A DNA stretch of 64,000 bases from Candidatus Obscuribacteraceae bacterium (GTDB taxonomy: Bacteria > Cyanobacteriota > Vampirovibrionia > Obscuribacterales > Obscuribacteraceae): the NCBI GenBank assembly GCA_044226015.1, contig JBGAHS010000007.1:1-64000 (forward strand), in the 5' to 3' direction. Position numbers and translations under genes: made by a program. Within the stretch, counting starts at the first letter, position 1; each line of letters opens with the position of its first letter. Below the pieces are notes generated by a model, which did no database searches, was not told where the DNA came from, and saw only the letters and a program-made list of their open reading frames with translations. This document shows positions 4,136-22,444 of the stretch, one piece after another.

Positions 4136-4378
4136 AAAAATTTCTCCCAATAATATTTGGACTGAGTCCTTATTATCCGCAGCATTTTGAGGATCCGGCT
4201 TATCATTCATACTTTTTCAATGAGTCTCCTGACATTCCGAAAGATTCGATATCGCGAACGATCACGGTTAATTTCTGAGGATGAAATTATGCTTCTTGAA
4301 CGCACTTGTTTCGACTTTGGAGTCCAACTTTGGTTTCAACTCATCGGGGATTCATAACTGTGTGGGAATACTCTGGCG

Positions 4379-4649
4379 CCCGAGGCTGAGTAATTTTGAA
4401 TTTGGATCGGTACCGATTGGAAAATCGAACGGCGAGGGCGTCGTTGAAAAGAGGTGCGCTGCCCGAGGCTGAGTAATTTTGAATTTGGATCGGTACCGAT
4501 TGGAAAATCGAACGGCGAGGGCGTCGTTGAAAAGAGGTGTGCTGCCCGAGGCTGAGTAATTTTGAATTTGGATCGGTACCGATTGGAAAATCGAACGGCG
4601 AGGGCGTCGTTGAAAAGAGGTGCGCTGCCCGAGGCTGAGTAATCTTGAA
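4379..4649. repeat. 83-bp tandem repeat, 3 full units plus a partial, cut off at the duplication junction
   Basis: Units start at 4379, 4462, 4545, 4628; each has the palindrome ATCGGTACCGAT and the hairpin AACGGCG-AGGG-CGTCGTT. Confidence 0.95.
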
Positions 4650-7010
4650 ATGCAGAACGAGCCACGCAGAACGAGCCACGCAGAACGAGCCACGCAGAAT
4701 GAGCCACGCAGAACGAGCCACGCGGAACACGCCACGCAGAACGAGCTACGCAGAACGAGCCACGCGGAACGAGCCTCACAGAACTCGCCTCGCGGAACCG
4801 CAAAAATAATACTAATGTGCATTAGTGAAGCCTGTGAAACTCAAAAGAAAACGCCAGCCCTGCGGCTGGCGTTTCTTGTACAACTTGAGCCTCGCTTCCG
4901 TTATTAGATCTTTTCGCTAACAACTTTTCCTTGGCTGAACAACTGTAAGTAGTCTGACCGCCAGCTTTGCTGTCGGTTCCGCTCATGTTGAATCCACCAA
5001 ATGGATGTACCCAACCAGAGCTCCAGTGCATTTTCGGTTCAGGTAGAGGTTACCGACGTGGAAATCTTCTGCTGCCTGGTCGAGCTTTTCTCTGCAAGCA
5101 GTGTAAGCTGCGCCTGTCAGTCCGAAATTCTGTGTTGTTTGCGATTTCGAGCGCGTGCTCCCAACTGTCAGCCTTGATGAATGCAAGAACTGGTCCGAAG
5201 ATTTCTTCTTGTGAGATTCTTGCATCTGGTTTGATGTCAGCGATGATTGTTGGTTCAATGAAGAATCCATTGTCAGCATTCTCGTGTGGCTTTCCGCCAG
5301 TCATCAGGCGTCCTTCCTTCTTACCGATTTCGATGTATTCGAGAATCGATTCGTAAGCTGATTTGGAGGCGACTGGACCCATGAAGGTGGTCTTCTCTTC
5401 TGGTTTTCCAACGCTGAGTTTCTTTGTGCGCTCAACAACTTTCTCCAGCACAGTGTCATAAACATCTTTGTGAATGATGGCTCTTGAGCAAGCTGAGCAC
5501 TTTTTGACCGCCGAATCCGAATGCTGCTTGAACGATTCCATCAGCAGCCGCGTCGAGGTTTGCATCATTGTTTACGATGATGCTGTCCTTTCCGCCCATT
5601 TCGGCTACGACGCGCTTGATCCAGATTTGACCCTTTGTGTTTTTGCTGCTATTTCGTTGATGCGCAGACCGACTTCTTTCGAGCCAGTGAATGCGATGAA
5701 ACGAACCTTTGATGCGCAACGAGGTAATCACCAACTGATGCTCCAGGACCTGGAACGAAGTTGACCACGCCCTTCGGCAAGCCAACTTCTTCAAGAATTT
5801 GGATGAACTGGTATGCGATTGCCGGAGTATCGCTCGATGGCTTCAGTACAACTGTGTTGCCTGTAACGATTGCTGCTGTGGTCATACCAACGAGAATCGC
5901 AAGAGGGAAATTCCAAGGCGGAATCACAAGACCTACGCCCAATGGGATGTAACTGAGCTTGTTGCGCTCTCCAGCCACAGGAACCAACGGAGCTGGATTC
6001 GCGAGGCGGAGCATTTCGTGTGCATAGTAGTCACAAAAATCGATTGCTTCAGCAACATCACCATCGGCTTCAACCCAGCTCTTGCCGATTTCGAGAACCA
6101 ACCATGCTGAGAGTTCATGTCTCTTCGCTCGCATGATATTTGCTGCTTTGAAGAGGTACTCAGCTCTATCTTCTGGTTTGACACGTTTCCAGCTTTCGAA
6201 TGCTGTGAGAGCCGCCTGCATGGCTTTTTCTGCATGCTCAGTGGTCGCTTTCGAGAACTTACCGATCACTTGTGCCGGGCTGCTTGGGTTCGTTGAAACC
6301 AAGAAATCGCTGGTTTCAATGCGTTCGCCATTGATAATCAATGGATATTGGCGACCAAGCTGCGAACGAACAGTCTTAAGGGCTTCCTTCATTGCCTTTT
6401 CGTTCTCAGGCAATGAGAAATCGGTGAAAGGTTCTGTTTTGAACTCGGCGTGTTTCCCTTTAGCTGCTGTCTCTTTGGGCAAAGTGGTCGGCATAAAAAT
6501 TTCTCCCAATAATATTTGGACTGAGTCCTTATTATCCGCAGCATTTTGAGGATCCGGCTTATCATTCATACTTTTTCAATGAGTCTCCTGACATTCCGAA
6601 AGATTCGATATCGCGAACGATCACGGTTAATTTCTGAGGATGAAATTATGCTTCTTGAACGCACTTGTTTCGACTTTGGAGTCCAACTTTGGTTTCAACT
6701 CATCGGGGATTCATAACTGTGTGGGAATACTCTCTGGCGCCCGAGGCTGAGTAATTTTGAATTTGGATCGGTACCGATTGGAAAATCGAACGGCGAGGGC
6801 GTCGTTGAAAAGAGGTGCGCTGCCCGAGGCTGAGTAATTTTGAATTTGGATCGGTACCGATTGGAAAATCGAACGGCGAGGGCGTCGTTGAAAAGAGGTG
6901 TGCTGCCCGAGGCTGAGTAATTTTGAATTTGGATCGGTACCGATTGGAAAATCGAACGGCGAGGGCGTCGTTGAAAAGAGGTGCGCTGCCCGAGGCTGAG
7001 TAATCTTGAA
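4650..7010. repeat. Second copy of a 2361-bp tandem duplication (first copy 2289-4649)
   Basis: Near-identical sequence offset by 2361 bp, including the 14-mers, terminator, pruA and 83-mers. Confidence 0.95.
4904..6494 (-). pseudogene. pruA: Frameshifted duplicate of pruA (probably an assembly or consensus artefact)
   Basis: Broken into ORFs 5649-6569, 5456-5794, 5050-5568, 4983-5279 and 4822-5031 by single-base indels, mostly in homopolymers. Confidence 0.85.
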
Positions 7011-7131
7011 TTTGGATCGGTACCGATTGGAAAATCGAACGGCGAGGGCGTCGTTGAAAAGAGGTGCGCTGCCCGAGGCTGAGTAATTTTGAATTTGGAT
7101 CGGTACCGAGTGGAAAATCGAACGGCGAGGG
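6740..7131. repeat. 83-bp tandem repeat, ~4.7 units
   Basis: Units start at 6740, 6823, 6906, 6989, 7072. Confidence 0.95.
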
Positions 7132-9807: not shown

Positions 9808-9891
9808 TGCGGTAACATAACAGGACGAACACTCAATTGGTGATCCCTGAACGAACGCAATCGTTATAGATCCCCGGACAGAACACAATCT

Positions 9892-10147
9892 GATCGAATC
9901 TGGATCGATACCGGTTGGGGGATCGAATTTGGATCGATACCGGTTGGGTGATCGAAACTGGATCGATACCGGTTGGGTGATCGAAACTGGATCGATACCG
10001 GTTGGGGGATCGAATCTGGATCGATACCGGTTGGGGGATCGAATCTGGATCGATACCGGTTGGGTGATCGAAACTGGATCGATACCGGTTGGGTGATCGA
10101 ATCTGGAGCGATACCGGTTGGGTGATCGAAACTGGATCGATACCGAT
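9892..10147. repeat. 29-bp tandem repeat (TGGATCGATACCGGTTGGGKGATCGAAWY), 8 full units plus partials
   Basis: Units start every 29 bp from 9901 to 10133; no unique spacers. Confidence 0.95.
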
Positions 10148-10773: not shown

Positions 10774-11367
10774 CTACATCCCCGGCGCTGAATTCAATTC
10801 TTCAATCGATTTTGTCAGCGAGTCACGCAGATGCTTTTGCCGAATGGGTCGTGACTCGGTTAATAAAGGCTTGATTCCCGGTGCAAAAGCAGCAGAAGCC
10901 GCCCCAAAACCCAGGTATTCACAAGCTTTTATCGATACTTCGCTGCACAATGCATCGAGGCTTGTGCAGTCTGAATGAAGGTCCATCACACTCATCGCGT
11001 CCGGCGCACCAATCAAGTAGTCGCTAGCATACAGCGCTAATTTCAGATAGTTCATGAGCCAAGCTGGCATCAGGTCGCCGCCCTGGTCCGCCGCATCCAG
11101 ATGTATCCAGATGCAAAGTAGCTCCTTCACCGCAGGAAGAAACTCTTCTTCCGAAAAGTTTTTCGAGGCAAGCGCTGCCAGATCCGCGTCTTTTATCTTG
11201 GTTGCCAATCCACGAACAGCAATGAGGCGCTCTTTCAGTCGAGCGGAAACTGATATCCCCATTTGAGATACGTAGAAATGAACGCGTTTATAGCGCTCGC
11301 TGCGAGTTTTTGGATTTAGCGCGGGTGAAACGTAAAACCGCGTATCCCCGCCGTCAGCTGCTTCCAT
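10774..11367 (-). CDS. Hypothetical helical protein
   Basis: 197-aa ORF starting 33 bp after the YceI stop, same strand. Confidence 0.7.
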   Translation of the reverse strand: MEAADGGDTRFYVSPALNPKTRSERYKRVHFYVSQMGISVSARLKERLIAVRGLATKIKDADLAALASKNFSEEEFLPAVKELLCIWIHLDAADQGGDLMPAWLMNYLKLALYASDYLIGAPDAMSVMDLHSDCTSLDALCSEVSIKACEYLGFGAASAAFAPGIKPLLTESRPIRQKHLRDSLTKSIEELNSAPGM

Positions 11368-11400: not shown

Positions 11401-12096
11401 CTATTTGGCAGGCTTTGCAGCAGGCTTAGGTGCTTCTTTAGAACTCTTACTGCTTCCGCCCTCGACTTGATTATACGCTGTAGCTGAAACTGTGACGATT
11501 ACTGTATCAGCTAGCTTCTGAAAAACAATTTCCGGTCGTTTGATGTCGTGGTCTTTGAATGCTATTGGAAAGCTTGCCTTGATCTGAATCAAGTCGCAAC
11601 CCTCGCGCTTTTGTTCGGTCGCCGGGCATTTGCTGAAGTAAATGACATCAATCGGAACCTGTTTGCTTACCGTTTTTCCGTGCAGAGAAAAGGTGCCATC
11701 GGCTTTTAGCGTTACTTTTTTGCCCGGTTCTAGCTTCTTTGGCGGATTGATAAGCTTGTTTAGTTGGAAAGTGGCTTTGGGAAATTTTTTTGTTTCCAGG
11801 AAATTGTCTCTCATGTGCTCATTGCGCAGAGGAATTCCTGTGTCGATTGAAGCTAAATCTACATCGAACTTTGCTGCGACCGGTTTTGTCAAATCCGTGC
11901 TGTCATCGATTGTTAGCGACCCTGTAATTTTGCTGGTCTTCCCTTCGATGAGTTCTAACGGTGCATCCGAATTAAAACTCGCAAAATCACGATTTTTTTC
12001 GTCTGCAATTTTGAATTCTCTAGGGGCAGCGCTTGCTGCAACTGCACTCAATGCTAGAACTGTGAGAAGGGATGCCGCTGTTAGATTTGCTCGCAT
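11401..12096 (-). CDS. YceI-family periplasmic lipid/polyisoprenoid-binding protein
   Basis: Signal peptide; DLASIDTGIPLRNEHMR, FLETKKFPKATF, GTFSLHG; ATG 1 nt from the upstream stop. Confidence 0.9.
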   Translation of the reverse strand: MRANLTAASLLTVLALSAVAASAAPREFKIADEKNRDFASFNSDAPLELIEGKTSKITGSLTIDDSTDLTKPVAAKFDVDLASIDTGIPLRNEHMRDNFLETKKFPKATFQLNKLINPPKKLEPGKKVTLKADGTFSLHGKTVSKQVPIDVIYFSKCPATEQKREGCDLIQIKASFPIAFKDHDIKRPEIVFQKLADTVIVTVSATAYNQVEGGSSKSSKEAPKPAAKPAK

Positions 12097-12097
12097 T

Positions 12098-12943
12098 TCA
12101 ATTTCCTTTTTTGATCGATCCGACAAAAATGTTGTCTTTCTGCAATTCTTCAATCAGACCTAAGAATTCTACAGTAATACTTGCTGGATCCGACTCTGCC
12201 GTTAAGCTCAATGTGAGCTTGAGCAAGTCAAGGTAAGATTGGCTCGTGTGTGCGTTTTCCACAATTGCAGCGCTTGCTTCGCCCAGTTCGATGAATCTTG
12301 CCTGATCTGTTTCTGGATCTCTGTAAATCACCATGTTGCAGTCTGACTTCGCGAATTTCCTTCGAACACTCTTGCATTCGTCTATATAACTTGCGATTTC
12401 ACCAATAGGATATGCAAACCGGCAAAGCGTCAGCGTTTGATTGACCAGAGGCGCAAATGCGCTCATTGATTCCAGACTGTCGATGCTCACTTTCTCTCCG
12501 CGGTTTATATCGCGGGGATCTTCCAGTTTCTCTAATTCCAACCATTCGTATTCAGCTAGTTCAGCCAACCATGGGAACTTCTTCAAGAAATCCAGGCGCT
12601 CTTCTTTCAAATACTTCGGAAAATTAGCGCAAATTTTGTTGAAATCAAAGTGTTTCGAAGGATATGCCCTGTAATAATCAGCGACCAGTTCTTCCCAGTC
12701 TTTGTTCACAGCTTTTGCGCAAAATGGAAAAATCCTATTAGCCATTCCCTGGTGTTCATAACCTATTGACCTACCATAGACACTCGCGCCTTTGCGGTCG
12801 AGTTGTGCAATGATTTTTGGGTCGAATTTTCGCACCATATCTGGTGCCTCTTCGATTGGCTCATCAGAAAGTAGCCATTCCCGTGATTCCTGATCCAACC
12901 AGAGAACAGACATTGCTTTCTCGATATCCTGGAATGTCGGCAC
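12098..12943 (-). CDS. MNIO partner protein (DUF2063 / HvfC-BufC-like)
   Basis: IFPFC, WEELVADYY, FPKYL, WLAELAEYEWLEL; GTG start overlaps the DUF692 stop by 1 nt. Confidence 0.85.
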   Translation of the reverse strand: MPTFQDIEKAMSVLWLDQESREWLLSDEPIEEAPDMVRKFDPKIIAQLDRKGASVYGRSIGYEHQGMANRIFPFCAKAVNKDWEELVADYYRAYPSKHFDFNKICANFPKYLKEERLDFLKKFPWLAELAEYEWLELEKLEDPRDINRGEKVSIDSLESMSAFAPLVNQTLTLCRFAYPIGEIASYIDECKSVRRKFAKSDCNMVIYRDPETDQARFIELGEASAAIVENAHTSQSYLDLLKLTLSLTAESDPASITVEFLGLIEELQKDNIFVGSIKKGN

Positions 12944-13890
12944 TAGCGTTTTCCTTTCTTTGTGGACACTAGTTCAAGACTCGATGCCATTCTTGCTTCC
13001 GTGCTCTTTGCTCCAGCACTAGTCGCACTCTTTAGATAGTGATTGTTCTTATTCGCTATCTTCCTGAGCTGTTCTAGCTCGGCGATTATCTCGGAAAATT
13101 CGGGGAAGTTTTGATCACGCTCTAACATGATGCCTTTAACATCTGCATCTTTATGCTGCAAAACGAAATCGAGCAACTCATAGACAGGGTCAATAATCGG
13201 CGCACCGTGCGTGTCAATAATGTAATCGCCAATCTTCTTGTGACCAGCCACGTGAATCTGCACAACCCTATCCATCGGGATTTTGCTCACAAAATCCCGA
13301 GCATCAAACTTCAAATTTATAGAATTGACGATGACGTTATTTACGTCCAGAAGCAGCCCACAATCAGCTTTTTCAAGTATTTCACTGATGAATTCGGTCT
13401 CGGGCATCTCACAGCCAGGCATATACATGTAAAACGAAATGTTCTCTAGCAAAAACGGTCTGCCAATGAAGTCCTGAACTCGTTTGATTCGTTCAACGAT
13501 GTGATTGCTTATCTGCTTGTTGAACGGCACTGGAAGCAAATCTTGAATGTAAACGCTGTCGATGCTTGTGAAACACAGGTGGTCGCTCCACCAGGGCGCA
13601 TCAATTTCGTCGAGCAAATTTTTTAGTAAACGCAAATAATCGAAATTCAGATCATCGCCGCTGCCGATGGATAAATTGAGTCCATGGGTGATGATTGGAA
13701 ATGCGCCTTCAGCGGCACGAATGCGCCGTCTAGCCTCACCGCCGATTTCGATGTAATTTTCTGGAGCAATCTCCACGAAGTCTATTAAATGGGAATGGGC
13801 GAAGGTCTCCTTCGACATTTCCCTTCGCAACCCCAAGCCGATTCCCAAAGGATTCAGTTGAGATTTTTGTTGCTGAAAGAATGTTGCCAT
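12943..13890 (-). CDS. DUF692-family multinuclear non-haem iron oxidative enzyme (MNIO)
   Basis: GLGLR, EIAPENY, HGLNLSIG, WSDHLCF, DLLP, LENI, LLDVNN, IHVAGH, IDTHG, LERD. Confidence 0.95.
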   Translation of the reverse strand: MATFFQQQKSQLNPLGIGLGLRREMSKETFAHSHLIDFVEIAPENYIEIGGEARRRIRAAEGAFPIITHGLNLSIGSGDDLNFDYLRLLKNLLDEIDAPWWSDHLCFTSIDSVYIQDLLPVPFNKQISNHIVERIKRVQDFIGRPFLLENISFYMYMPGCEMPETEFISEILEKADCGLLLDVNNVIVNSINLKFDARDFVSKIPMDRVVQIHVAGHKKIGDYIIDTHGAPIIDPVYELLDFVLQHKDADVKGIMLERDQNFPEFSEIIAELEQLRKIANKNNHYLKSATSAGAKSTEARMASSLELVSTKKGKR

Positions 13891-13943
13891 TTAGACCTTC
13901 GCCCCCAGATCTTTCGATCAAAGAAGATGAAATAGAATCGAGC

Positions 13944-14261
13944 TTATTTCTTTTCTTCAGCTGCTTTGCAGGACTTTTCGCCAGCTTTACAGCTCTTTTC
14001 GCCAGCTTTACAGCTCTTTTCGCTCTTCTTGCAGGACTTTTCGCCCTTCTTGCAGGACTTTTCGCCTGCTTTGCAAGATTTTTCTTCTTTCTTCTCTTCT
14101 GTTTTCTTCTCTTTCTTTTCTTTCTTAGCTAGCTTCTTTTCGGTCTTTTCAGCTGCTGGTTTGTCGCCTGCTGCTGGAGCATCATCTGCAAAAGCTGGAG
14201 CGCTGATGCCGAGTGCTGCGATTAGAGCTGCTGCGAGTTGAACTTTAGAGAAATTTTCCAT
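13944..14261 (-). CDS. Secreted Cys-repeat RiPP precursor candidate (6x EKSCK)
   Basis: Sec signal ending AFA, K/E-rich linker, six 7-aa EKSCKx[G/S/A] repeats encoded by 21-bp repeats; RBS GGAG; 53 bp upstream of DUF692. Confidence 0.88.
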   Translation of the reverse strand: MENFSKVQLAAALIAALGISAPAFADDAPAAGDKPAAEKTEKKLAKKEKKEKKTEEKKEEKSCKAGEKSCKKGEKSCKKSEKSCKAGEKSCKAGEKSCKAAEEKK

Positions 14262-14314: not shown

Positions 14315-14358
14315 TCTCTTATAAAGTTGTCATAATGACAACCCGTATATATAAGAGA
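14315..14358. promoter_or_regulatory. Nested inverted repeat upstream of the MNIO operon (candidate operator or leader hairpin)
   Basis: GTTGTCAT-A-ATGACAAC (14326-14342) flanked by TCTCTTATA/TATAAGAGA. Confidence 0.45.
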
Positions 14359-14778
14359 AACTGTGTGCCATGGTAGTCGTTTCAGATTAAGAAGACCGCA
14401 GAACAAGGTTATGGGAATGTAAAATCATGGATTCGCTGCTCTAGCCTAATGTCCTAGTCTCAACAATTGGTAATTTCTTCAGATTTTGAGCTGAAAAAAG
14501 AGAAGTAAGTAGCTCTTAATTGTCAAAGTCAAGAGCAAATAAAATTTTGGCAATCGCATTCCTTATATATGCAGTTTGTGTTCACTCAAAAATTTCTCAA
14601 AGAAAGTAAAAGACAGAATTTGCTTCTCGTCTAATCGTGATATCGCAATCAAATGTATGCATAAATTGACTCTCTTCGCTTGGATCCACATTTGAATGTT
14701 CTATCAGAATTTTGGGATGAGCACTTGTTGCTATGAAATTTCCAAAATTGATTCAATGAACCTGGTGAACCAAAAGCG

Positions 14779-15108
14779 ATGCGATGTATCGAATGCAATG
14801 AGACGCTGCGCCCGGCACATGAACGGACGTTATCGAATGCGATGCGACAAAAAATTTTTAGGCAAAGGATGAATTGCAAGACACCAAATAGAAGCGCTGC
14901 GAAACCAGTTGGACCAGAAACAAGAAGGCAAAGTGCCACAGTGCATAACACGAAATTGAATTCATTCAATTCATCTGAGCCACAGGTTGAAAGAAGTACA
15001 GTCATTCATCTGGGTAACGTGAATCCATTCGAACTGGATATCGAGAAAGAACTGCAGAAAAGAGAAATGCTGCGTCAAACTTTCCGAGCAATCCTTGCTC
15101 CGGTGTGA
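14779..15108 (+). CDS. Possible hypothetical protein
   Basis: 109-aa ORF divergent from the MNIO operon; no recognisable family. Confidence 0.3.
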   Translation: MRCIECNETLRPAHERTLSNAMRQKIFRQRMNCKTPNRSAAKPVGPETRRQSATVHNTKLNSFNSSEPQVERSTVIHLGNVNPFELDIEKELQKREMLRQTFRAILAPV

Positions 15109-15681: not shown

Positions 15682-15981
15682 TTAGTTAGCTTGTGGAGCT
15701 TCTTCCTTTTTCTCCACTTTCTTCTCTTCCTTCTTCTCTTCCTTCTTTACTTTCTTCTCGGCGTGTTTCTTTTTAGCAGCACTTGCTCCTTTCTCATCTT
15801 TTCCGCAAGAACCTTTACCGCATTTCGATTCATCAGCTAAGTATCTTGGACCACTGTGCTCAACCTTTCCTAGCGAGCTATTTTGGTTGACATCTGGCGT
15901 ACTGGCAATCGCGAGTGTACTGCTGCTAACACCTGTCGCAGCAAGGATCGCCAACAGCTCGGTCTTCGAAATCTTCTTCAT
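15682..15981 (-). CDS. Secreted low-complexity peptide, HvfA/EGKCG-like RiPP precursor candidate
   Basis: Signal-like N-terminus, DESKCGKGSCGK motif, K/E-rich tail, RBS AAGGAG. Confidence 0.75.
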   Translation of the reverse strand: MKKISKTELLAILAATGVSSSTLAIASTPDVNQNSSLGKVEHSGPRYLADESKCGKGSCGKDEKGASAAKKKHAEKKVKKEEKKEEKKVEKKEEAPQAN

Positions 15982-16421: not shown

Positions 16422-17054
16422 TTAGCCTTCAGAAGATCCGCCGTTATCACCTGCCATCGGCGCAGAAGCTGCTGCCTTAGGCTTACGTGATGTTGTGCGC
16501 TTCTTTGCTGGCTTCTTAGCTGCTGCCTTCTTTGGAGCCGCTTTCTTAGCTGCTGGCTTTTTAGCTGCTGCTTTTTTAGCTGCTGGCTTTTTGGCTGCTG
16601 CTTTCTTAGTGGTCTTCTTAGCTGCTGCTTTCTTAGGAGCTGCCTTTTTAGCAGTAGTCTTTTTAGCTGCTGCTTTCTTAGGAGCTGCTTTCTTTGTGGT
16701 CTTTTTAGCTGCTGCTTTCTTAGGAGCTGCTTTCTTAGCTGCTGCCTTCTTTGGAGCTGCTTTCTTAGCTGCTGCTTTCTTAGGAGCTGCTTTCTTTGTG
16801 GTCTTTTTAGCTGCTGCTTTCTTAGGAGCTGCTTTTTTAGCAGTTGCTTTCTTAGCAGTTGCTTTCTTAGCTGTAGCTTTCTTTGCTCCTGCTTTTTTAG
16901 CCGGCGCTTTCTTAGCTGCTGCTTTCTTTGTTGTTCTCTTCTTGCGGGTAGCCTTCTTAGGAGCCGCATCTCCACCTTCAGCTTCGTCTGCTACAGCTGC
17001 TGCTGGGGAAACTCCTTTTCGAGCTTTTCTTTTCTTTGGCTTAGTTGCTGCCAT
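16422..17054 (-). CDS. Histone H1-like Lys/Ala-rich DNA-binding protein
   Basis: Many [15 protein letters not shown] pentapeptides; RBS GGAGG; own terminator. Confidence 0.85.
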
Positions 17055-17711: not shown

Positions 17712-18698
17712 TTATATGTGTGTGCCGCCGGCGTAACCAAACGCAGATCTGAAACCTTCAGTTTGAACAGATTTCAAATCCGCAAAGTCAATGACGTCAT
17801 GGTCGATTAACCTTTCGTATTCGCCCGGTAGAGTACAAGGTGCTGGATTGCGGCCTGGGTTGTCTGTGCAAATAGCGATGGCGACCCCAGCTTTGCGACA
17901 CCTATCGAAGACTGTTTTGAGTTTGTGAAAGTCCTTGAGAACACCAGTTTGTCTGTAGCTGGTTGGACAAACTTCCAAAGTGATTTGCTTTTTCGCCAAT
18001 TCTTTTAGCATTTCTGGTTTGTCCATAGCGATGTGTATGCCATGTCCAATTCTGTCGAGGACCGTGAAATATTGGCTGTGTACGTTATCTATGCTTGTCT
18101 CTCCAAGATGCGCAGTCGTTTTGAGTCCTGCGGCTCTTGCTTTAGCGAGAAGCTTGACCCAGACCTCCCACTTCTCAGGTTCAATTTCTGGACCGGCAAG
18201 ATCTATTCCAACAACTGGCCCGAGATTGTCCTTTGCTACTTTTAGAATTGCTTCGTTCAAATTCTGTGGCAACCTGCGATCGAGGCAGAGTATTTGCTTA
18301 ACGGTGATCGGGTATTCTGCTGGACGAAGATTTGCTGTAATGACTTCGACTATGTCGGTCATCTGACTAATACGTTTTGCAGGTGGCAAATTTTTGTCTG
18401 TGCGGAAATATGGGTTGTACCTAATCTCCATGTATTGCAAATTTTCAAAGGTGTAGGCCCCGCGGCAGAGCCGTAAACAGAAGTAGGGCAGGTGTTCTAG
18501 GCTTTGAAGTTCTTCGACGAGGCTGTGGATTTTGACAAACTCTTCCAGCGAGTTGCATGGTCGAGTGAACCAATTTAGGAAACCATCATAGTCTGGAAAA
18601 AAGTTCAGAATGGCATGATCATTCTTCTGGAGAAATTTGTAAATGATTCTAGGGTGTAAAGCGCCTCCGAGATGGCGATGCAAATCTGCATAAAGCAT
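17712..18698 (-). CDS. add: Adenosine deaminase family protein
   Basis: DLHRHLGG, GIDLAGPE, AHLGE, RIGHG, LEVCPTS, CTDNP. Confidence 0.88.
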   Translation of the reverse strand: MLYADLHRHLGGALHPRIIYKFLQKNDHAILNFFPDYDGFLNWFTRPCNSLEEFVKIHSLVEELQSLEHLPYFCLRLCRGAYTFENLQYMEIRYNPYFRTDKNLPPAKRISQMTDIVEVITANLRPAEYPITVKQILCLDRRLPQNLNEAILKVAKDNLGPVVGIDLAGPEIEPEKWEVWVKLLAKARAAGLKTTAHLGETSIDNVHSQYFTVLDRIGHGIHIAMDKPEMLKELAKKQITLEVCPTSYRQTGVLKDFHKLKTVFDRCRKAGVAIAICTDNPGRNPAPCTLPGEYERLIDHDVIDFADLKSVQTEGFRSAFGYAGGTHI

Positions 18699-18886: not shown

Positions 18887-21800
18887 TCAAAGCCAATTAA
18901 TCGCGTTTTTGCAGCGGATGATTCCTTCTTCATCATTGCAGCGCTCATACATTGATTTCGCTTCTGACCAATTTTGAACCGACTCAAAACACTTGCCGGC
19001 TCTCTTCCAATTCTTGCTCTGCTTAAAACAGTCTGCAGCTTTGCTCATCTCTCCGTTCTGCTCATAAATCTCAGCAGCCTCGGAAAATAGTTTGCATTTT
19101 TCAAGACTGTCTGCTTGTTTGAGAAACATCATGCATTCTTTGTAGTATCCGGCAGCAGCTTTGAAGTCCTTCTTCAATTCCAGTAACTGAGCGGCTGCAG
19201 AGACTTTTTTGTTCTCAAAACACCATGAGAGAAGTTGCCTGAAGTTGGCTTCATCTTTTGAGCGTATTTTGGAATTGCTCGAAATAAGTTCAAACGCTTG
19301 CGTGACTTGCCCTGATACCACATACAGTTTGGCTGCTTCAAACGATTTGTCGATTTTGGCCAGGCAGTTTGCCGCCTGTAAATTGTTATCGGCTTGAACG
19401 TACAGTTTTGATGCCTGAAGATAATCACCTTTTTTCTCGGCAGCCAGCGCAGCCTCCGTTATTGCTCCTGATTCCAGATAGTTGAGTATCGCATTCTCAA
19501 AATCAGAAAGCTTGTCATAGCATCGTGCCGCAATCAGCTTGTTATCACAGGCTTTTGCGAGTTCGAGTGCTTTCTTGTAATCAGTCGCCTGCTCTGATGC
19601 CAGAGCCGCGTCATTTAATCGTTTGGCTTTCTCGAATTGATCTGCTGCTTCACCGTAACTTTTGATTTTGATAAACAGCTCGGCAGATTTGAGATGTTCT
19701 CCAGCCTCAGCATATGCAATCGCCGCATCTTCAATTTTGTTTGATCTCAAGAAATAGTCCGCAGCTTTTATGTTAAGTTCAGCATCCTTTGCTACGCATG
19801 CAGCATCATCCCATCTGTTAAGCTTTTCGTAAATCACGATTGCTTTTTCAAATTCAGCTCCCCGATGGAAACAATGAGCAGCACTCTCTTCATCTTTGCA
19901 TCGAAGGAAATTGTTGCCAGCTTCTGTGAAGAGTCCTGCTGATTGTTGAAGGACCGCTGCCTTCTTGAAATTGTTTGCTTGCTCATACAAGTTTGCTGCG
20001 ACAGTTGTAAGTCCTGCTTCTTCGCTTGCGTTCGCCGCGTCCTCTAAGTTTCCACACTTATGAAAACACTGGGCTGCCGTTTCCCAGTCTTCACTCCTGG
20101 CGTGCAGAATTCCAGCGCGCTGAAACTCCCCTTGCTTCTCACAGCAACGTGCTGCCTCTGACCACATTTCCAATTTTTCAAACTCTGCAGCCGCTGAAGC
20201 TAGTTGATCGCTTTTCTCATATGCTTGCGCCAGCTCATAATCTAAACCTGCTCTCTTGAGATACGAGATAGCCTGCTCAAATCTATTGAGCCTGACCAGC
20301 GCTTTGCCTTGAGCTGCATAATCGAAACAACGATTCCACAAGAGAAGAGCCTTATCCCTGCATTCGGCTCCAAATGGAGATAGAGCCGCTTCATTATCGG
20401 ACTTTGAAAGTTCAACGAGTACTCTTTCAAAAAGCTCATCTGCTATCTTTCTTTCTAGAAAGATTACATTGTAGTTGGGCATTTCCAGCTCTCGACGAGT
20501 CCAAAAATTTTCCAGACCATCTTTCTGTTCCCTTAGATCTACCAAACCGAAGAAATCAGCGCTGGCAATTTGTTTTGCACTCAAATAAGACAGAAAGTTC
20601 TCATAGTCTTCGTTTGATACCACTAGCAGCAAATTCTTGCGTGCTCTGCTCATTCCCATGTACCAGAGATCACCAATTCGAGCAGAATTGCGCAAAACAT
20701 TCTCAGCCGAGGAAAATGCTCGATATATGATGACATCTTCGAACTCTAATCCCTTACTCTTGCTCAGCGGCAAAATAAAGATCGAACGACTCTTGCTCAA
20801 ACGACGTTGCAAGAAGTCCAGCGACTCAGCATTTTCGACCAGAACTACTAGTGGGTTGTCGCTTTGACTGCTCTCATCTTTCTCCAACAGAAATTGCAAA
20901 AACTCATCATCATTTGACTTGACCAACACTGGCTTTTCGCCAGTTGTCTCAGGAGCCAGTCCCAGGTCTTGCGTTTCAGCTCCAAGCTTACGCAAGAATG
21001 TTGCCAACTTATGTATTTCTTGCGTATTACGATAATTTTTATGCAGTTGAACCTTTTTCAACGCATTTGGTCTGCGTATCTTTTTCAGGATTGTTTGCAG
21101 ATAGGACTCCAGTTCTTGCCAGCGAAACCCTGACCTGCTGATGTTCTGGTTCGTGTCACCGCAAAATAGAGGAAAGCTCGAAAGCTCGGCGCTTTGTGTG
21201 CAATGGTTTTCCCAGAAAAGAAGAATCGACTTCCATTCGAGTTCTGTAAAGTCTTGAATCTCATCGATGACTATCCATAACTTTTTTTGCGCATCAGCAA
21301 GCAGTGCGCTGCTCTTTAACGTCTCATAACTAAGCCGAATCAAATCTGCTTCATCAAGGAAATTCCGTTGCTCGAGTTTCGCTTGATAAAACGAAAAGAT
21401 TTCGAGCGTGTCCTCTAAGCTATCAGGCATTCGTCCATAGTCTCGAAAGATTCTTTCGTAGTCCTCTCGAGAAGACGGAAGTCGCTCACTATCAGGCATA
21501 AACCGACCTTTCAAAATGGAATAAAAAGTTCCATAAAGATCAGCTGCATCAAAGTTTCTGAGCCAGCGAGATTTTTGATTTAGAATCTGTCGAATGATTG
21601 AAAGCGATTCATCTTTATCAATCCAATTTTGTTTGTTTTCTTTGCGTACCTGTTTTTTGAGATAGCGTCGGCAGAAATCCAGATAAGAAAACACTTTGAT
21701 GCCAGAATTGGCAGAACTTTCTTCATCAGTGCCAAGCAGGTTCACTTTGTAAGAGCGACAAACACATGCTAACTCTTCATGATATGTGAATAGGTAAATG

Positions 21801-22444
21801 AGATCGTCGGGTTGCTCTTCATATGTTTGCAGCGCGAAAAACAGTGCCAGTGTGGTTTTTCCTGTTCCCGCAGGACCTTGAATCAGGAAGCACCTTTCCT
21901 TTTCCGCAAGCAGATCTTCTTGTTCTTCACTCAGTCTAAGATATCGGTCGAGACTCTTTTCAAATTGAAGGTGTCTGGATGGATCCAACAAAAGATATTG
22001 AGGCACCCGAAACAACTGCATTTCAGTAGGTGAGGAATCTTTCAAAACTTCAATCGCGATGGCATTAGCCCTGGCGTTGGCTTGCGATTCACTTTCTTGA
22101 AGATTTTCCTCATTCAAAACTTCAAGCCTGTTGGATTTTAAAGTGCTGCGATCTGCCCGCTCATAAGCTTTGTCATGATGATTGATTTCATGAATAATCA
22201 GAGCAATCGTATTGCTCTCTTTAATCATCGAGAATATCAAACGAAAATCGCGACTCATTCTCGCTGAATACAGTCTTTCGCTTTTTCCCTGCAATTTTTC
22301 GACGTTCAGCCCGGGAATCTCAAAACGCCCGTCCCTTAGTTTTGATACAAGCTCCCAGAATTTACGATGCAACTGCGCTTGCACAACCTTGTTCAGAGAA
22401 GAGCGCACATGAGGGCTTATATAGACAGTGGCAAAACTAACCAT
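18887..22444 (-). CDS. UvrD-like SF1 helicase with N-terminal RelE-like domain and C-terminal TPR/SNAP-like repeats
   Basis: LSEEQ, GPAGTGKTT, IDEIQD, GDTNQ, NYRNTQEI, SKGLEFEDV, YMGMSRAR; ~480 aa of helical repeats. Confidence 0.88.
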   Translation of the reverse strand: MVSFATVYISPHVRSSLNKVVQAQLHRKFWELVSKLRDGRFEIPGLNVEKLQGKSERLYSARMSRDFRLIFSMIKESNTIALIIHEINHHDKAYERADRSTLKSNRLEVLNEENLQESESQANARANAIAIEVLKDSSPTEMQLFRVPQYLLLDPSRHLQFEKSLDRYLRLSEEQEDLLAEKERCFLIQGPAGTGKTTLALFFALQTYEEQPDDLIYLFTYHEELACVCRSYKVNLLGTDEESSANSGIKVFSYLDFCRRYLKKQVRKENKQNWIDKDESLSIIRQILNQKSRWLRNFDAADLYGTFYSILKGRFMPDSERLPSSREDYERIFRDYGRMPDSLEDTLEIFSFYQAKLEQRNFLDEADLIRLSYETLKSSALLADAQKKLWIVIDEIQDFTELEWKSILLFWENHCTQSAELSSFPLFCGDTNQNISRSGFRWQELESYLQTILKKIRRPNALKKVQLHKNYRNTQEIHKLATFLRKLGAETQDLGLAPETTGEKPVLVKSNDDEFLQFLLEKDESSQSDNPLVVLVENAESLDFLQRRLSKSRSIFILPLSKSKGLEFEDVIIYRAFSSAENVLRNSARIGDLWYMGMSRARKNLLLVVSNEDYENFLSYLSAKQIASADFFGLVDLREQKDGLENFWTRRELEMPNYNVIFLERKIADELFERVLVELSKSDNEAALSPFGAECRDKALLLWNRCFDYAAQGKALVRLNRFEQAISYLKRAGLDYELAQAYEKSDQLASAAAEFEKLEMWSEAARCCEKQGEFQRAGILHARSEDWETAAQCFHKCGNLEDAANASEEAGLTTVAANLYEQANNFKKAAVLQQSAGLFTEAGNNFLRCKDEESAAHCFHRGAEFEKAIVIYEKLNRWDDAACVAKDAELNIKAADYFLRSNKIEDAAIAYAEAGEHLKSAELFIKIKSYGEAADQFEKAKRLNDAALASEQATDYKKALELAKACDNKLIAARCYDKLSDFENAILNYLESGAITEAALAAEKKGDYLQASKLYVQADNNLQAANCLAKIDKSFEAAKLYVVSGQVTQAFELISSNSKIRSKDEANFRQLLSWCFENKKVSAAAQLLELKKDFKAAAGYYKECMMFLKQADSLEKCKLFSEAAEIYEQNGEMSKAADCFKQSKNWKRAGKCFESVQNWSEAKSMYERCNDEEGIIRCKNAINWL

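Follow-up and report, generated by a model that had tools for sequence, protein, structure and literature searches.

A captophorin-type MNIO locus with two precursor genes and a co-distributed YceI-family gene in an Obscuribacteraceae genome

We analysed the first 64,000 nucleotides of contig JBGAHS010000007.1 of a Candidatus Obscuribacteraceae bacterium (the window), and judged from its sequence that a minus-strand gene cluster near its start is a captophorin-type (bufferin/oxazolin) system for peptides that are made on ribosomes and modified after translation (RiPPs), built around an oxidative enzyme dependent on multinuclear non-heme iron (MNIO). The cluster combines the MNIO and its DUF2063-type partner with two predicted precursors of differing motif class, A1 and A2, and with a YceI-family protein, and in all 68 intact loci compared A2 and YceI are either both present or both absent. 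By analogy with bufferins (PMC11626156) and fontiphorin, the MNIO and its partner would oxidize each target cysteine by four electrons to a 5-thiooxazole, and A1 and A2 would leave the cytoplasm by Sec and, once in the periplasm, capture surplus Cu(I)/Cu(II). The core substrate would be A1, whose flexible, charged chain offers six sites; A2, with one Cys-Gly pair, would be a second substrate of the same enzyme. YceI would serve A2 by carrying a lipid or quinone in the periplasm and dealing with redox side-effects of the Cys-Gly peptide, filling the slot held by DoxX in proteobacterial operons; direct binding of A2 by YceI is a bolder option. We give this reading as a whole a probability of about 0.7. 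The chemistry and probable function of the locus are not new. Captophorins are, however, a very large RiPP class, and the presence or absence of A2 plus YceI on the same enzyme and main peptide is a natural experiment that makes the partner hypothesis concretely testable; moreover, an enzyme that should tolerate either Lys or Gly behind the Cys is relevant to the selectivity and engineering of MNIOs.

The locus and its relation to known captophorins

The genome measures 8.19 Mb, and the window is the first part of its contig C10. The features of the locus, in window coordinates, are:

15682-15981, minus strand: A2, second precursor, 99 amino acids (open reading frame (ORF) from the ATG at 15981)
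14386-14426, minus strand: conserved cis element GATTTTACA-N4-cATaAC-N17-TTAAT (motif conservation, matrix search)
13944-14261, minus strand: A1, main precursor, 105 amino acids (six EKSCK repeats)
12943-13890, minus strand: MNIO (DUF692) maturase, 315 amino acids (PF05114, 312.7 bits)
12098-12943, minus strand: DUF2063/HvfC-like partner of PME1 type, 281 amino acids (PF09836, 30.6 bits, cut-off 27.2)
11401-12096, minus strand: YceI-family beta-barrel, 231 amino acids (PF04264, 78.8 bits; a longer ORF spans 11401-12153)
10774-11367, minus strand: optional fifth gene, 197 amino acids (co-oriented)

An earlier note on this DNA had described four packed, co-oriented genes from A1 to YceI. They do lie on the minus strand where it placed them, with all three Pfam identities above cut-off and the six EKSCK units of A1 at 7-residue spacing; A2, the cis element and the fifth gene had escaped it. 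A1 and the MNIO gene are 53 nt apart, the MNIO and partner genes overlap by 1 nt as the note had read, the partner and YceI genes are separated by 1 nt, and the fifth gene begins 33 nt past YceI. The arrangement is that of captophorins: a PF05114 MNIO with intact motifs, an adjacent DUF2063 protein and a precursor directly 5′ in conserved order. On NCBIfam models the MNIO scored highest with HvfB (296.9 bits, cut-off 360), followed by BufB (273.8, cut-off 310), ApyH (112), MbnB (59) and ChrH (52), and the partner matched HvfC (NF050145) at E 1e-22 with 81 bits, below the cut-off of 142. Among 201 genomes of the class no MNIO match attained the HvfB cut-off. The best PDB match of the MNIO was 3BWW (E 3.5e-49), and its His/Asp/Glu motifs align with those of 3BWW, 8HCI and 7DZ9; we take the aligned residues to be the iron ligands.

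A1 consists of a signal-like N-terminus (a hydrophobic stretch and an A-x-A site, …AFA|DD, judged by eye), a Lys/Glu linker and the six repeats, whose cysteines at 63, 70, 77, 84, 91 and 98 keep an exact 7-residue period. Cleavage at the A-x-A site would leave a mature peptide of 80 residues (8688.5 Da monoisotopic). The DNA copies of the repeat differ synonymously, and A1 is the sole ORF with three in-register EKSCK units among the 151,213 six-frame ORFs of the genome. It matched none of the bufferin, DUF2282 (E<=0.1) or HvfA models of Pfam and NCBIfam. As a protein query A1 returned five matches only, and the family survey was therefore run via the MNIO, for which orthologues (E<=1e-90) were found in 86 of 97 family genomes; the named relatives are mostly Ca. 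Obscuribacterales or Melainabacteria. The 95 loci compared below are the window and 94 fetched loci, taken from the best-scoring matches plus some paralogues and so not covering all 97 genomes. An ERDQ-type MNIO with an SCK-repeat precursor directly 5′ is present in 74 of the 95, which bears out a tight linkage of the SCK-repeat peptide to the MNIO; the note had offered linkage of EKSCK peptides to DUF692 genes as a check. Nearly every family genome has the system (57/58), and in another family of the class it was found in 0/69 genomes searched. The 74 precursors hold 349 sites of the form K-[ED]-[GKAS]-[SA]-C-K-[GAS], 1-11 per precursor, and 217 of 275 intervals show the 7-residue period. The form most often met is EGSCKG (144 sites); EKSCK is mostly restricted to the source genus, and by this survey it is a local spelling of a family-wide KEGSCKG motif. 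In the Vampirovibrio-type loci L209-L222 the precursors are His/Asp-rich around HKCA/HKCG motifs, which suggests, from their composition, extra metal ligands.

A2 also has a signal-like N-terminus, followed by a single oxazolin-like pair, ESKCG-KGSCG (Cys54, Cys59), a conserved D-x-K-G-A-x-A-A and a Lys/Glu tail; with the cleavage site judged by eye, mature A2 would have 73 residues and a mass of 7949.1 Da. Its core C-G-x-G-x-C-G-x-D-x-K-G-A is unchanged across 18 aligned rows. It matched the HvfA model NF050188 weakly (18.3 bits, cut-off 95) and DUF2282 not at all at E<=0.1, but HvfA itself, with AEGKCGEGKCG, has the same 5-residue cysteine spacing (PMC11252979; this and most papers cited here were drawn on for part of their text). 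By sequence A2 is thus minimal-oxazolin-like, yet outside oxazolin membership.

The earlier note had seen a bufferin/oxazolin-kind MNIO/DUF2063 RiPP, and this stands; its view that the Ser-Cys-Lys context lies outside described families does not. MNIO + DUF2063 systems have been unified as captophorins installing 5-thiooxazole (PMC12668002), and a ‘Cys-Lys’ precursor group was defined in the same paper by Gadgil et al., in whose Dataset S2 EKSCK occurs 18 times, CK-style precursors with EKSCKG repeats among them, and SCKGK 331 times. Class, precursor category and EKSCK repeats are thus already in print, and the claimed novelty was overstated. Nor is the lineage without a described RiPP, as the note had supposed: two Vampirovibrio MNIO-partner pairs are listed in Dataset S1 of PMC12668002, and the mel cluster (MelA1/MelH/MelHc) of a Ca. 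Melainabacteria metagenome-assembled genome was expressed, its MNIO giving a −4 Da product (PMC13056109). The mel cluster resembles the present locus in organism class, secreted precursor and the −4 Da change on a Cys motif, but belongs to the ChrH subfamily, its CPACGMG motif being carried by a protein of 34 kDa; the present MNIO reaches only the 52 bits given above on that model.

Closer comparison sets the locus apart from each characterized group. Cys-Lys captophorins (bufferin 2 of Caulobacter vibrioides; WP_157758427.1) likewise have MNIO and DUF2063 genes after a signal-bearing x-C-K-repeat precursor, whereas A1 is a low-complexity Lys/Glu peptide of 7-residue period without the 6/12-Cys scaffold, and the EKSCKG precursors of Dataset S2 have a 13-residue period. 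Cys-Lys enzymes carry Asp after the catalytic Asp, and the MNIO here carries Gln (Gln260). With this Gln, a BufB score of 273.8 against 310 and no precursor-model match in Pfam or NCBIfam, the locus falls outside bufferin 2, and without a DUF2282 four-Cys precursor among A1 and A2 outside bufferin 1. With the EGKCG / Lys-Cys group (HvfABC/FonABC/NgoABC) it shares the highest-scoring enzyme model, an RR motif, the paired Cys-Gly 5-mer of A2 and a charged, probably disordered scaffold. HvfA, HvfB and HvfC scores all lie below cut-off, however, and oxazolin-group enzymes have Phe at the selectivity site where this one does not, so that the locus also stands outside oxazolin/Buf_EGKCG; moreover, A2 has one Cys-Gly pair versus many, YceI occupies the DoxX slot and, unlike in that group, two precursors of differing motif class stand beside one enzyme. 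Tandem precursors have been noted for bufferins (PMC12452194).

For A2-type precursors and for the YceI link we found no published listing or link. No literature linking YceI to DUF692/MNIO, or to RiPP plus copper, was found in the open literature (PDF supplements excluded), and no report was found of an EKSCK-type repeat peptide having been tested. The consulted text and two spreadsheets of PMC12452194 contain no YceI, EKSC, Obscuribacter or Melainabacteria, and the spreadsheets no SCKG, SCKK, GSCK or KGSCG; Datasets S1-S2 of PMC12668002 contain no Obscuribacter, and S2 no GSCGTD and no CGKGSC.

Co-distribution of A2 and YceI

For YceI the ATG at 12096 is the likelier start, with a purine-rich stretch resembling a ribosome-binding site and a position 1 nt past the partner stop; the N-terminus is signal-like. 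An AlphaFold2 model (mean pLDDT 83.5) had E. coli YceI, 1Y0G, as best Foldseek match (E 5.6e-12), and as modelled the protein is a YceI-type barrel. It shares this fold and the signal-like N-terminus with the YceI/BcnA lipocalins 1Y0G, 1WUB and 5IXH, at 17-23% identity over structural alignments; the ligands of these homologues, by their PDB titles, are polyisoprenoid, quinone or lipid. The locus family differs in a loop Cys pair, C157/C168, present in 35 of 36 locus YceIs and absent from more distant rows, and in being linked to captophorin precursors and not to cytochrome b561, none of which is among the annotated neighbours. The locus YceI forms a clade apart from the two ordinary YceIs of the genome (on C11 and C7), and the distant relatives found by profile search (sequences only, no genomic context) form a graded series. 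BcnA-type proteins limit lipid peroxidation (PMC9113575); for YceI we consider it most likely that it carries a quinone or lipid and handles redox consequences for A2.

After exclusion of 27 of the 95 loci (at contig ends, lacking a detected A1, or with an enzyme that is fused or paralogous), 68 intact loci remained, 30 with both A2 and YceI, 38 with neither and none discordant. The script had counted 29, 38 and one YceI-only locus, L072, whose A2 has one changed residue and which was corrected by hand. In the 97 genomes the YceI clade was found in 37 and A2 in 36 (profile search, the profile being built from 18 of these genomes), both in 35 and neither in 59; in the three discordant genomes (G010, G106, G101) the match lies near a contig end of a fragmented assembly. 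A2 and YceI sit on opposite flanks of the core, and hence a single deletion cannot remove both. This joint retention or loss suggests that the two work as a pair.

The association extends beyond the intact loci. In eight loci (L204, L206, L208, L244, L246, L247, L248, L261) a Cys-Gly precursor adjoins YceI without an intervening MNIO, and in G039 and G148 a precursor-YceI pair stands apart from the MNIO. Of 20 further loci of the class, 15 have the order precursor-MNIO-partner-YceI, two precursor-YceI, two an orphan YceI and one is truncated; their 17 precursors all belong to Cys-Gly/Cys-Ala types, without any SCK repeats. Scanning of metagenomes yielded 52 YceI-clade loci, many short or distant, among them five with a Cys-Gly precursor directly 5′ of YceI, one with A2 3′ of YceI (L242), one with A2 inverted (L240) and at least two well-flanked orphan YceIs. 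By unrooted comparison, the layouts suggest that the ancestral operon had the order A2-MNIO-partner-YceI and that A1 was an insertion into it. In L248 the Cys-Gly precursor-YceI pair is divergent from genes that by eye resemble an extracytoplasmic function (ECF) sigma factor and an anti-sigma factor, reminiscent of SigF/NrsF control of bufferins.

Several observations weigh against a functional pair. On a quick MNIO tree the A2/YceI state changed at least seven times, but only three changes are forced by well-supported branches, and although all three independent pairs are concordant the sign test is not significant (p 0.25). Orphan YceIs of the locus clade exist (L223, L224, L252, L254), and L060 and L062 are Cys-Gly precursor loci with no YceI within the fetched flanks. 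It is therefore possible, though at clearly less than even odds, that YceI is functionally untied to A2, as a co-regulated envelope-stress lipocalin, and that a few losses in ancestors, from an original A2-MNIO-partner-YceI operon with A1 inserted, produced the pattern. The small number of independent events (3-7) and the orphans agree with such a history, as does the protection against lipid peroxidation that YceI-fold BcnA gives without any RiPP (PMC9113575); moreover, YceI is absent from the portion of text surveying proteobacterial clusters in PMC12452194 (PDF supplement excluded). The D-x-K tail of A2, considered as a YceI-specific mark, lost weight with 1,246 CGADKK matches in Dataset S2 of PMC12668002, such a tail being common in proteobacterial oxazolin precursors. 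This history is harder to reconcile with zero discordance among the 68 loci, where the non-adjacent genes would need two events for each joint loss, with the precursor-YceI pairing kept in G039 and G148 despite separation from the MNIO, or with the A2 kept at the locus despite rearrangement in L240 and L242. As to the DoxX slot, the DoxX of this genome used as query had no match in the 95 loci, and DoxX is dispensable in Caulobacter (PMC11626156).

The strongest form of our proposal, that this YceI clade serves Cys-Gly thiooxazole peptides as their dedicated partner in the periplasm, by binding modified A2 or recycling its redox state, and that one Gln-bearing MNIO makes both Cys-Lys and Cys-Gly captophorins, we consider rather unlikely; if true, it would provide the first downstream partner for any captophorin and a natural dual-specificity MNIO.

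Enzyme selectivity and the bound metal

Every characterized MNIO + PME1 system forms 5-thiooxazole, and binding of Cu is usual among them (PMC12668002, PMC11626156). In FonB, Arg15/Arg16, Asp249 and Phe250 are selectivity or catalytic positions, Asp replacing Phe in Cys-Lys enzymes (PMC12668002), and the equivalents here are R22, R23, D259 (for Asp249) and, at the selectivity site, Q260. The residue at −3 from Cys is acidic in 349/349 A1-type sites, which fits the Glu read by FonB Arg15/Arg16, and the enzyme here keeps RR. A2 has the HvfA-type 5-residue cysteine spacing, and FonBC requires two repeats (PMC12668002). Other points count against the proposal. FonBC left substrates with a charged residue after Cys unprocessed (PMC12668002), so A1 processing would hinge on a putative selectivity of the enzyme here; Cys-Lys enzymes carry Asp where this MNIO has Gln260; and the MNIO and its partner score below the HvfB, BufB and HvfC cut-offs. 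The C7 fusion paralogue has Gln at this site too, as do 13 loci without detected A1. We considered Gln260 as an adaptation to two substrates and rejected it, Gln being present also in single-precursor loci and paralogues; because the residue is shared in this way, Gln260 is by sequence comparison a lineage trait and not evidence of dual specificity.

Among the four MNIOs of the genome only that at 12943-13890 has the precursor-MNIO-partner layout. The other three are longer or fused, with no A1/A2-like precursors nearby:

G000 C7:778519-780966: MNIO fused to a DUF2063-like part, 815 amino acids
C4:277738-279105: further MNIO
C8:703858-705126: further MNIO (one of these two is a divergent enzyme)

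The non-divergent enzyme of the C4/C8 pair follows a Cys/Gly-tailed membrane protein, presumably of the TIGR04222 type.

These data bear on whether one peptide only is a substrate, with A1 modified and A2 either a relic or a disulfide peptide left unmodified, or the converse, free thiols of A1 binding metal. A2 lies 1.4 kb from A1 and has no upstream element of its own, characterized enzymes discriminate by the residue that follows Cys (PMC12668002), and the 38 of 68 loci without A2 have the same Gln enzyme. We nevertheless hold a single substrate to be improbable: the A2 Cys motif is invariant in the 18 aligned rows, the genome has no other enzyme of this layout, and hybrid precursors joining the A2 motif to SC[KS] motifs exist. 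The hybrids occur at second loci (L068 in G019, L166, L250, L251) with an ERDD-type MNIO and a YceI without the Cys pair.

The absence of a copper transporter or copper regulator among the Pfam-annotated flanking genes (a genome-wide survey was not made) also speaks against the proposal. The chemistry may be as proposed and the job other than copper detoxification, i.e. scavenging or storage of another metal or redox buffering, as the fixed position of the locus beside an adenosine deaminase and a histone-like gene, its housekeeping-like near-universality and an upstream element that matches no nameable regulator would allow, but to this we assign a small probability, since Cu binding is shared by bufferins, oxazolin, fontiphorin and gonophorin, and bufferins are induced by Cu and protect against it (PMC12668002, PMC11626156).

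Upstream element, transcripts and neighbouring genes

The element lies ~165 nt 5′ of A1 (about 110-175 nt across loci), and 58 of the 73 upstream regions, from 19 of 25 genera, have its core, irrespective of A2; it was not seen 5′ of A2. With a matrix made without the window’s own site, the window site was still the best match in the genome (28.7 bits, the next 17.9), and with a full-length model it was the only one. It is a repeat of 11-bp period overlapping the −35 position, likely an activator site of that period with a −10 element, to judge from its sequence; we presume a resemblance to OmpR/PhoB-type sites. Identity with HLR1, the RpaB site, was rejected, the octamer direct repeat of HLR1, as far as described in the source consulted, having a 10-bp period (2-nt spacer) versus 11 bp. 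A regulon was also rejected because genome matches do not exceed shuffled expectation (25 above 13 bits versus 4 per 1.29-Mb shuffled strand, ~50 expected), as was a palindrome, GTTGTCATTATGACAAC at 14326-14342, as operator, being present in 1 of 74 upstream regions. A scan for sigma-70 promoters and terminators found sites no more frequent than in shuffles. The element is not mentioned in the parts of the captophorin literature examined (PDF supplements excluded). Two metatranscriptomes of one study contain short, nearly identical contigs that cover parts of YceI, the 197-residue gene and the A1 end/MNIO start, and one contig of 415 nt (depth 44.9) ends at 13907, just beyond the A1 stop; these contigs come without a silent-region control and are not counted as evidence of expression or co-transcription.

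The fifth gene had no credible Pfam/NCBIfam match, no usable ESM Atlas match and no signal peptide that we could see. It is present in 13 of 78 family genomes, as tandem triplets in three (G045, G077, G081), and lies just downstream of this locus wherever flanks were examined; its distribution does not track A2/YceI. Between A2 and A1 a 109-residue ORF on the opposite strand (14779-15108, plus strand) explains the unusually long A2-A1 gap, and had no match in the first 34 relative loci nor elsewhere in the genome. Two intergenic arrays (4378-4649 and 6739-7131) share one 83-bp tandem repeat unit (98% matches), with related 29-bp arrays at 566-648 and 9891-10145; a CRISPR-like nature was rejected for these arrays, which are without spacers. 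Upstream, a histone H1-like HC2 protein (16422-17054, minus strand) and an adenosine deaminase-family protein (17712-18698, minus strand) form a neighbourhood conserved family-wide. Beyond them a 1185-residue protein (18887-22444, minus strand) combines in Pfam an N-terminus weakly like RelE/HigB with UvrD-like helicase domains and a long tail of TPR/clathrin repeats, possibly with a defence or sensor role, and counterparts are found at the equivalent position in some relatives of the genus.

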